A stretch of 64,000 nt of DNA from TPA_inf: Saccharomyces. Its lineage: Eukaryota. Location: contig BK006936.2 of the NCBI GenBank assembly GCA_000146045.2, forward strand, positions 736,001 through 800,000. Reading direction: 5' to 3'. This document shows, one piece after another, positions 49,074 through 52,430 of this stretch (positions are counted from its first letter, which is position 1; each line of letters starts with the position of its first letter). The position numbers and the translations under genes were made by a program. The notes below the pieces were generated by a model. It had not been told where the DNA came from and ran no database searches. It was given only the letters and a program-made list of their open reading frames with translations.

Positions 49074-51005
49074 TAAAAAGTCAAGATGTAAGTTACCTCT
49101 TAGTAAGAAGAGTTATTGCAGCAAGCTTAGTATCAATAGGGAGACTCTGTCATGTAAAAAAATAAATGAACACAATCATAACCTCTTCGACTGGGCTATT
49201 CGTTGTATAGTATATGTGGTGGAGTGTAATGAATGAAGTTCTCAGAAGCTTGAAAGCATATCAAAATCACGTATTGACTATGACAGATTCTTGTTTCTTG
49301 CTCCATTACTCCATTCGAGTTTTTCACAACTTTTGTCGTTCGTCTATAACATCTCTTTTTTTTCCCACTCTTCTAAAATATTGGCATAGCTGACATGTTT
49401 GGAACCGAATAAGCAATTACAATACGACAGTAAAATAAAAGCATGTTATTGCTGCTTGTAGAGAATTCCTGCATATGTAACTTTCTCATTCCGACGGGAT
49501 AAGTTCATAAACTAATCAGCGATGAGTTGCGGAAAATTCGTCAATAGAATATTTTCCAGTCAGTGGTGGTCCCAGTGGCCTGCAACCTAATGGCTATAGT
49601 TCTGGATAATAAATTGGGCAAAGGTCAGTATAAAGAATGAATGTATCAGGCCGTAATTGAAGCTTTCAAGTCCAGGTGAAAGGCCAAATCGACAATTAGC
49701 GAAAACAGGATTTTTTTACCAACTTGAAATAGTGACTGCTGTCTTTTTGCCTGATTAAGTGGTTATATATTTCAACTAATATCACAACAAAAGGCCTCTC
49801 AAAATTTGTGGCGAAGTGTACATCCTGGGTGCTCAGGTAAGCGTCGTCTTCGTATTTTTTTTTTTTCAACAGTAGTTTGGAAATAATGCTCTTCGAGGAA
49901 TGCGAGCGGAAATGTTATCCACTGTATAAGTCGATATTTTAAGGGACGCTAAATATATCATCATAGCTCGTCTATTGGTGGCTTCTCCAATTGCACTTTC
50001 AATGCATTATGGTAAAGTGTGGTGATAAGGCATAGTGATGTTTACAGAGGTCTGTTGGTTTCTCTGGGCTCGCTCATCATCCGACCAGTAACCTTGTGGG
50101 GTTTCACATATTGTTCTATGCATTATTATCACGGATTTGTGCCTGCAAATGCTGTTTCTTTGGCTTTTCTTTCTAAAAAAATTATGATATATATATTGTT
50201 CCTCCTTGTTTAACAGGCTTTACGGTATTGTGGATCCTAGTAATAGGCGTACTTTTCTTCATTTACATATTTGAACAATATATGTCTCACAAGTAGTTGA
50301 CCGAATAGCGTTACGTAAGGGTCAAAAACCTTTTCAGAATTGTATATATGACATTTTTAGAACATGATATAATAAACAGAATATAAAAGAAAATAGAGAC
50401 GACGTACCATGGCATGAAGAATTGTACTGATATCACATTGTGTTGAGCACTGATAGATTAATACTATATTTCTGCTAGGTGCGGGGGGTAACATGTCCTA
50501 ATGTGTGGCAACCACATTCTAAGGCTCGGTAAGTGATGCGATATATGTGCATGTGTGGCTTTCTTCCTAATTTGCTATTAGATGATTGTGTGCAAATCCA
50601 CAGAAATATACAATTTCGAGAATATATATACTAGTTATCGTTATAAGAACACACAGTATTGGCCAATTCTTGCCTCTGAATGGTACAAAATGCTTTAAAA
50701 TGTAGTAAATGAAACATTAATTCCAAATCAGATTTTTTTTCGCAATGCTTAAATCTAGTAAACACAAAGTACTACCGAAAAGCAAGGATGGAAACTATGG
50801 CAGTATTGAAGAGACTGAAATTCCTTCTGTCGACTACAGTGAAGACTTAGATGAGGACTTGGACAAAGGCGAAGATATAGCGCTTTCAAGAATCCCAAAT
50901 TGATGGATTATTGAAGCTACTCTTTTTTCTAATGTCTTTTTGTCCGGTTTTGACGGAACCGTTACAGCTTCGACGTACCAAACGATTGGTAACGAATTTA
51001 ATCAG

Positions 51006-52430
51006 ATGAGTATTTCAAATTGGATCACCACTGCGTATTTAATTACATCAACATCTTTTCAACCTCTTTATGGGTCATTTTCTGATGCACTTGGTCGAAG
51101 AAACTGCCTTTTCTTTGCTAATGGGGCTTTTACCATTGGATGTCTAGCCTGTGGTTTCTCGAAAAACATCTACATGCTTAGTTTTATGAGAGCATTGACA
51201 GGCATAGGAGGTGGTGGCTTGATCACACTTTCTACAATCGTAAATTCAGACGTTATTCCAAGTTCGAAAAGAGGAATTTTTCAAGCGTTTCAGAATTTAC
51301 TTTTGGGATTTGGTGCCATATGTGGAGCGTCTTTCGGTGGCACAATAGCGTCGAGCATTGGTTGGAGGTGGTGTTTTCTCATCCAAGTACCCATATCTGT
51401 GATTAGTTCCATATTAATGAATTATTATGTACCTAATCAGAAAGAATATAATCGTCAAAATTCTAGCATATTCCAAAATCCCGGAAAAATACTCAGGGAC
51501 ATAGATGTTATGGGCTCAATTCTTATTATAACTGGTCTCACACTACAGCTTCTTTACCTGAGCCTGGGGTGTTCTACTTCTAAATTATCATGGACCAGCC
51601 CTTCTGTGCTACTGCTATTAGTTGGGAGTGTAATAATCCTCTTACTGTTCATATTGCACGAAAGGAAAACAAGTGCTAGAGCGATTATTCCTATGGAGCT
51701 GGTCAATTCCTCCTACAGTGTCGTTGTACTTTCGATAAGTATACTTGTTGGTTTTGCCAGCTACGCGTATCTTTTTACTTTACCATTATTCTTTCAGATT
51801 GTACTTGGAGATTCCACTGCAAAAGCAGGATTACGTCTTACGATTCCTTCCCTATTTACTCCGGTAGGCAGTCTCATAACAGGATTTTCCATGAGCAAGT
51901 ACAACTGTCTAAGATTATTACTCTACATTGGTATTTCTTTGATGTTTTTGGGTAACTTTTTATTCCTGTTTATTGAAAAAACTTCTCCGAACTGGTTGAT
52001 TGGTCTATTTTTGATACCTGCAAATCTAGGACAAGGTATCACTTTTCCTACGACCTTGTTTACTTTCATATTTATGTTCTCTAAGAGTGACCAAGCTACT
52101 GCGACATCAACTTTATATTTATTCCGTAGTATTGGATCTGTATGGGGTGTTGCAATTTCAGCTGGCGTCATTCAATTATCTTTCGCAGGTTTATTGCGTA
52201 GTAATTTGAAAGGTCTACTGGATGAAAACAAGATAAAGAAACTTATTGTTCAGCTTAGTGCAAACTCCTCATATATTGGATCTTTACATGGCGAAGTTAA
52301 AAACACAGTCATAAAGAGTTTTGATGAGGCAACAAAGAGGGCTCATCTAATGTCTACATTACTCTCTTCATTGGCCCTGATACTCTGCATCCTTAAAGAC
52401 AATCTGGCGAAACCTAAAACAAGAAGATAA
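51006..52430 (+). CDS. VBA2: Vacuolar basic amino acid MFS transporter (474 aa from the reference ATG); YBR293W
   Basis: MFS (DHA-type) hydropathy and motifs. The in-frame ORF continues upstream to a TTG at 50940 and, past a single TGA at 50901, to an ATG at 50745. See the finding on 50745..51008. Confidence 0.85.
   Translation: MSISNWITTAYLITSTSFQPLYGSFSDALGRRNCLFFANGAFTIGCLACGFSKNIYMLSFMRALTGIGGGGLITLSTIVNSDVIPSSKRGIFQAFQNLLLGFGAICGASFGGTIASSIGWRWCFLIQVPISVISSILMNYYVPNQKEYNRQNSSIFQNPGKILRDIDVMGSILIITGLTLQLLYLSLGCSTSKLSWTSPSVLLLLVGSVIILLLFILHERKTSARAIIPMELVNSSYSVVVLSISILVGFASYAYLFTLPLFFQIVLGDSTAKAGLRLTIPSLFTPVGSLITGFSMSKYNCLRLLLYIGISLMFLGNFLFLFIEKTSPNWLIGLFLIPANLGQGITFPTTLFTFIFMFSKSDQATATSTLYLFRSIGSVWGVAISAGVIQLSFAGLLRSNLKGLLDENKIKKLIVQLSANSSYIGSLHGEVKNTVIKSFDEATKRAHLMSTLLSSLALILCILKDNLAKPKTRR

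Follow-up and report, generated by a model that had tools for sequence, protein, structure and literature searches.

Results

A single stop codon interrupts the VBA2 reading frame

We analysed a stretch of 64,000 nucleotides of the Saccharomyces cerevisiae S288C reference genome (assembly GCA_000146045.2, contig BK006936.2, positions 736,001 to 800,000 of the forward strand; hereafter the window) and focus here on VBA2 (YBR293W), a major facilitator superfamily (MFS) gene, and on the DNA immediately 5' of its annotated start. All features are given in window coordinates and lie on the forward (+) strand. The annotated open reading frame (ORF) starts with the ATG at 51006 and comprises 474 codons and a stop (51006..52430), and the 474 aa that it encodes match Vba2p of S288C (NP_009852.3) exactly. 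Upstream and in the same frame, an ATG at 50745-50747 opens a run of 52 sense codons (50745..50900; MLKSS...SRIPN, full string MLKSSKHKVLPKSKDGNYGSIEETEIPSVDYSEDLDEDLDKGEDIALSRIPN) that is followed directly by a TGA (50901..50903). Beyond this TGA, a further 34 sense codons (50904..51005; WIIEATLFSNVFLSGFDGTVTASTYQTIGNEFNQ) continue in frame up to the annotated ATG, and reading through the TGA gives a single frame of 561 codons. A preliminary description of this DNA had placed both ATGs, the TGA and the two peptide strings exactly as they stand in the sequence, and had estimated a read-through product of about 561 codons; the frame has precisely this length, and other isolates encode a protein of 561 aa.

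The upstream open frame is more than a product of chance, because the 261 nt 5' of the annotated ATG contain one in-frame stop, as compared with a mean of 6.6 stops per 261-nt window in the neighbouring intergenic DNA, where 0 of 344 windows had one stop or fewer, and because only 1.1% of shuffles of the 261-nt segment contained at most one stop. Removal of the stop by splicing was considered and rejected, as the intron signals GTAYGT and TACTAAC have no match in 50700-51100.

The stranded segment corresponds to the first transmembrane helix of a DHA2 transporter

The Pfam profile PF07690 (MFS_1; cut-off 33.4 bits) matched the read-through product with 158.2 bits over profile positions 1-346, beginning at residue 60, and matched the annotated 474-aa product with 146.1 bits from profile position 34 onward; profile positions 1-33 are regained only with the N-terminal extension. 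The first transmembrane helix (TM1) of EmrB (FMQVLDSTIANVAIPTI) aligns with Vba2 FLSGFDGTVTASTYQTI, the QacA alignment begins at Vba2 residue 54, and TM1 of both EmrB and QacA pairs with residues 54-87. Consistently, the acidic-residue signature of DHA2 TM1 (L-D-x-T-I/V...) is present within 50904-51005.

For the 561-aa allele, an AlphaFold model that drew on 39 fungal homologues reached an overall predicted local distance difference test (pLDDT) score of 83.4 and a predicted template modelling (pTM) score of 0.82. In this model, residues 1-42 are disordered, TM1 is formed by a helix at 53-76 (pLDDT 82-92), a short helix follows at 78-85, and TM2 is the helix at 88-116. Altogether, the modelled helices are consistent with the 14 transmembrane helices by which members of the DHA2 and V-BAAT families are recognised, and the nearest solved structures are the 14-TM transporters EmrB (8zal), QacA (7y58) and EfpA (8ufd), with query-normalised template modelling scores (TM-scores) of 0.70-0.74. 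In the model, the stop coincides with residue 1 of TM1 and the annotated Met with residue 1 of TM2, such that the annotated ORF represents TM2-TM14 of the ancestral protein, started at an internal Met (residue 88). The annotated S288C product begins at TM2, would have 13 helices and would thus fall one short of the 14-TM architecture.

Among the same homologues, N63, V64, L66, D70, T72, A75, Y78 and I81 are invariant (39/39) and position 53 is occupied by L, F, I or V throughout (39/39); residue 88 is a Met in only 13 of the 39. Every one of them has between 14 and 90 residues ahead of TM1, and none of the 39 lacks TM1, which is the best conserved stretch of the N-terminal region and the most conserved helix of the family. 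The EmrB alignment, the model and the invariant columns converge on 50904..51005 as a stranded coding segment, codons 54-87, that encodes TM1 with its DHA2 signature and the turn between TM1 and TM2. This agrees with the preliminary description, which had taken the upstream segment for an MFS TM1 missing from the annotated protein: TM1 of DHA2 transporters with solved structures aligns with the segment, which forms TM1 in a confident model. In S288C, the TM1 motif can enter a product only via read-through of the TGA or via a non-AUG start just after it.

The stop is derived and the ancestral codon encodes leucine

A protein search recovered S. cerevisiae proteins of 561 aa that are 99% identical to the full conceptual product and read SRIPN-L-WIIEA across the position of the stop. 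They begin with the same 52 residues as are translated from 50745..50900. This segment represents ancestral VBA2 codons 1-52, coding for a cytosolic N-terminal tail, and is left as a free-standing 52-codon upstream ORF in the TGA allele. Over 461 aligned bases, only one separates strain BAP_1a from the window: BAP_1a has T for G at 50902 and hence TTA (Leu) in place of TGA. In S. paradoxus, S. eubayanus and S. mikatae the codon at this site is CTA (Leu), and the ORFs are uninterrupted, with 564, 564 and 568 codons, respectively; identity over the full length is 93% for S. paradoxus and 82% for S. eubayanus.

Comparison of strains and species thus identifies 50901..50903 as a derived premature stop (L53*), in which G at 50902 replaces the T of an ancestral TTA, and the history is a silent change from CTA to TTA followed by a T-to-G transversion from TTA to TGA. 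The preliminary description had singled out the codon at 50901 for inspection in other isolates, S. paradoxus and S. mikatae, and it proved to be a sense codon for Leu in many other isolates (TTA) and in both sister species (CTA). Its proposal of a nonsense mutation, as opposed to a naturally short transporter, finds support in these sense codons; the origin it offered for the stop, TGG to TGA, has to be replaced, with TTA in the intact alleles and CTA in the sister species.

Because a 35-codon stretch here differs among Saccharomyces species by 12-23 synonymous as compared with 0-2 non-synonymous changes, the stranded stretch has been maintained as protein under strong purifying selection. 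A Sulfate_transp gene lies downstream, at the SUL1 position, in all S. cerevisiae, S. paradoxus, S. eubayanus and S. mikatae loci, and a Mito_carr gene lies upstream of VBA2 in locus L001; conserved position together with full-length identity argues that these loci belong to the VBA2 orthologue group. We also considered that VBA2 might be a programmed read-through gene. What follows the stop is conserved as coding sequence, but all orthologues and many isolates lack the stop. As a derived and polymorphic feature, it excludes programmed read-through.

The TGA allele is widespread and VBA2 has been disrupted more than once

In a survey of 25 loci, TGA was found at L002-L005, L008, L009, L014-L017 and L025, and TTA at L001, L006, L007, L010-L013 and L022-L024. 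The stop is common to at least ten assemblies besides S288C and is also present in the lager yeast S. pastorianus, so that the suggestion in the preliminary description of a strain-specific change no longer stands. Moreover, gene calls on 599 public contigs, one S. pastorianus genome among them, include precisely this 52-aa upstream ORF. The protein-cluster tables covered 40 of 202 members and laboratory strains make up most of the public reads, so that the tables are no quantitative measure of allele frequency; the one figure is the published count of 86 strains that encode the long form (Bianchi et al. 2016). The haplotypes that carry TGA are closely related and S288C-like, consistent with a single origin and some later recombination.

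Two other lesions were found on the TTA background. In L024, a C-to-T change at the equivalent of 50979 converts CAA to TAA (Q79*), and in L022 and L023 a 1-nt deletion in a run of four T at ~51053-51056 shifts the frame near codon 105; together, these represent at least two further independent disabling alleles. In other assemblies we also observed protein models of 218, 408, 418, 424, 471, 512 and 545 aa, which hint at more disruptions at the level of protein models; the shortened models include P0002, P0003, P0009, P0015, P0127, P0132 and P0147. Since TGA segregates with intact alleles and independent disruptions are found beside it, VBA2 is best viewed as a polymorphic pseudogene, with a disabling change that coexists with intact conspecific alleles.

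An apparent Trp53 revertant (protein P0144) was rejected: the DNA of L025 reads TGA, and the gene caller's code reads TGA as Trp. L025 is a 986-bp contig (Logan SRR11071395) and carries single-base deletions in two T runs, at the equivalents of 50923 and 50937, which are probably assembly errors.

The 474-aa model has been copied onto genomes with an intact ORF

Models of a 474-aa Vba2p are present on L006, L007 and L010-L013 (YJM genomes) despite TTA and an intact 561-codon ORF. Likewise, the RefSeq protein XP_056080638.1 of S. mikatae IFO 1815 is given as 474 aa (L020 1219-2925), yet a 568-codon frame is open there. Because 474-aa models sit on open frames of 561 and 568 codons, the S288C model has evidently been copied unchecked onto genomes with an intact ORF. 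The preliminary description had raised a mis-annotated N-terminus of the S288C gene as an alternative to a mutation; in S288C the stop is truly there, and the mis-annotation sits instead in the genomes onto which the 474-aa model was copied.

Sequence context of initiation in S288C

Transcripts that start before 50745 carry ATGs at 50745, 50788, 50797, 50851, 50903 and 50932, all 5' of the annotated ATG at 51006, which itself has a C at -3. The TGA overlaps the out-of-frame ATG at 50903 (TGATGG; a 3-codon ORF, 50901-50914), and the inventory of ATGs includes an out-of-frame 25-codon ORF (50932..51009) whose stop overlaps the annotated ATG (ATGA). Both overlaps look incidental, and they would influence re-initiation at 51006. 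A TATA-box consensus (TATATATA, 50623..50630), 122 nt 5' of the ATG at 50745, is the sole TATAWAWR match in 50400-51100, and no TATAWAWR is found between 50745 and 51006; its placement suits the long ORF, for which this consensus hit would be a likely core promoter.

Side observations on variation around VBA2

Four YJM450/YJM320-type loci (L010-L013) contain a divergent block from ~51151 to ~53930 that is 95-96% identical to S. paradoxus and 89-91% identical to S288C. The block extends over the body of VBA2 and the spacer between VBA2 and SUL1 into the 5' part of SUL1, and the DNA upstream of it is 99-100% S288C-like. It looks like an S. paradoxus-derived introgression with its breakpoint inside VBA2, which would have made the gene a chimera while keeping it intact (TTA). 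In the hybrid VIN7, the S. kudriavzevii-type copy (L021 ~1370-1500) has a shifted frame across the start of TM1, 5' of the 474-aa start (…FKNFKPVDYRSYSFSNVFLSGFDG…), which suggests that this copy is frameshifted or that an older assembly has a homopolymer error here. Finally, L007 has a 20-bp deletion at the equivalent of 50679-50698, just 5' of the ancestral ATG, by which a small ATG-containing AATGGTACAAAATGCTTTAA is lost, and its upstream flank is also more divergent.

Discussion

Altogether, it is very probable that the TGA at 50901-50903 is a real, derived nonsense polymorphism, and a natural loss-of-function or strongly hypomorphic allele is the best-supported reading of VBA2 in S288C. 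We hold complete loss of function with less confidence than the polymorphism itself. The T-to-G change at 50902 converted a Leu codon, TTA, into TGA (L53*) in a gene for a 561-aa, 14-helix MFS transporter of the DHA2/V-BAAT type at the vacuolar membrane. Translation started at the ancestral AUG at 50745 stops after the 52-residue disordered tail, and the annotated 474-aa ORF is what follows from the first in-frame Met downstream, at the start of TM2. Neither S288C product contains TM1 with the invariant Asp70, and the longer of the two would be a 13-helix remnant unable to take up the normal N-in topology or to build the N-domain bundle.

The stop itself has been known since 2016, from a supplement, but has not entered the reference annotation. 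Bianchi et al. 2016 (Sci Rep 6:31443, PMC4993999, Supplementary Note S1 and Fig. S2) reported that, measured against the family, S288C Vba2 and Vba3 are truncated at the N-terminus, that a single TGA lies 5' of the annotated VBA2 start, and that a 261-bp extension, named "Vba2ext", gives a 14-TM protein that was encoded by 86 S. cerevisiae strains in NCBI (September 2015). In the same work, short YPet fusions formed intracellular aggregates, and Vba2ext-YPet, with the stop changed to Leu, was confined to the vacuolar membrane (PMC4993999). Earlier, Dias & Sa-Correia 2013 (PMC3890622) had noted the VBA3 stop and counted VBA2 as full size; beyond Bianchi et al. 2016, we found no other paper on the VBA2 stop in the searchable literature. 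Vba2ext is the same feature as the one described here, with nothing essential different. Our additions are minor: the ancestral codons TTA and CTA, the placement of the stop and of Met88 in the model, the synonymous and non-synonymous counts, the presence in lager yeast, the wider spread of the allele, the independent disruptions and the propagated mis-annotations.

Several observations weigh against a loss of function in S288C. As cited in PMC3890622 and PMC4993999, Shimazu 2005 credited Vba2 with bringing Lys, His and Arg into vacuoles in an H+-dependent manner, and deletion of VBA2 in S288C-background strains is reported, in the same second-hand citations of Shimazu 2005, to lower vesicle uptake. 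A minor contribution of Vba2 was found in BY4742 (Bianchi et al. 2016, PMC4993999), and the aggregation of the short form was seen with GAL-driven, over-expressed tagged protein and not at native level (PMC4993999). Furthermore, a fusion of BY4741 DNA to Venus gives protein in a manner strongly dependent on the N-terminal domain of eIF4B (Liu et al. 2022, PMC8762332); from its primers, the fragment maps to 50505-51093 of the window, includes the TATA match at 50623, and joins Venus 30 codons after the ATG at 51006 with 501 nt of native upstream DNA. Because this fusion gives detectable protein, the annotated frame must receive some translation. A vba1-2-3 triple deletion that left lysine pools unchanged in Sigma1278b (PMC13160679) may point the other way, towards loss of function, depending on the VBA2 allele of this strain.

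The deletion phenotypes, known from second-hand citations, and the expression of the Venus fusion are what one would expect if the 474-aa protein from 51006 were a genuine, partly functional transporter of S288C in which the truncation is tolerated, a view implied by the reference annotation and by the original functional study. We nonetheless consider this unlikely. Such a protein would be without TM1 and the eight invariant residues in it and would span the membrane with 13 and not 14 helices, Met88 is present in only 13 of 39 homologues and 0 of 39 do without TM1, seven ATGs precede a start in poor context on transcripts from 5' of 50745, and the short form aggregates on expression (PMC4993999). 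Alternatively, low-level read-through of the UGA, or a near-cognate start just 3' of it (ATT at 50907 or 50910), might supply a little TM1-containing Vba2 and account for residual activity, of which there is a report (PMC4993999). Position 53 accepts L, F, I and V, such that a near-cognate insertion might be tolerated, and in-frame near-cognate codons lie at 50907, 50910 and 50940. The stop is derived and polymorphic, however, and so is no programmed feature. Read-through in yeast is promoted by A at -1 and -2 and by CAR-NBA downstream of the stop, and the context here, AAU-UGA-UGG-AUU, is unlike these; overall, we regard a contribution of this kind as very unlikely. It is hardly conceivable that the TGA is an error of reference sequencing or assembly, or that the 52-codon ORF evolved as a regulatory upstream ORF. 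A 52-codon ORF 5' of a gene can resemble an upstream ORF, and nothing beyond the bare sequence speaks for it. The TGA recurs in the independent assemblies of the survey and its 52-aa ORF on the 599 contigs, and a sequencing error was rejected for its presence in more than ten independent assemblies; in the sister species the segment joins the ORF without a break and has been under strong purifying selection at the protein level. Our preferred explanation remains a derived nonsense change that created a natural loss-of-function or strongly hypomorphic allele.

It is tempting to speculate that the repeated losses of VBA2, together with the TTA-to-TGA change in VBA3, reflect selection for loss of these transporters in domesticated or laboratory lineages, as opposed to neutral decay. 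We consider this rather doubtful, and the evidence is compatible with both.

As a discovery the finding has little weight, having been published in a supplementary note in 2016; what is left for practice is caution about annotation and strain background. The reference annotation still shows the 474-aa Vba2p as a normal protein, and this model has been copied to several YJM strains and to S. mikatae (XP_056080638.1). Much of the literature on vacuolar transport of basic amino acids uses S288C-derived strains, in which 'wild-type' VBA2 is a remnant without TM1, and weak or negative phenotypes of vba2 deletions in this background tell little about the intact transporter.

The read-through form of Vba2 has its fold and its TM1 signature in common with the bacterial 14-TM transporters EmrB, QacA and EfpA; these differ in sequence (identity ~18-20%) and are drug exporters of the cell membrane, in contrast to a vacuolar importer of basic amino acids. 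The closest parallel is VBA3 (YCL069W) of S288C, which, similarly to VBA2, is a DHA2-family gene cut at the N-terminus by a single TTA-to-TGA change in a Leu codon, with the annotated start downstream and the first helices gone (PMC3890622, PMC4993999). VBA3 differs from VBA2 in that it lies on chromosome III, is a paralogue of VBA5, belongs to the plasma membrane and not the vacuole, and has an extension of 372 bp. Among unrelated genes, FLO8 in S288C is a natural disabling allele of laboratory yeast. Likewise, AVT4 in Sigma1278b carries a premature stop (PMC13160679). Such alleles resemble that of VBA2 as nonsense or frameshift polymorphisms of a strain background that silently shape what is taken for wild type in functional studies. 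Unlike AVT4 and FLO8, the VBA2 allele occurs commonly outside the laboratory lineage, and its remnant appears in the reference annotation as a normal gene.

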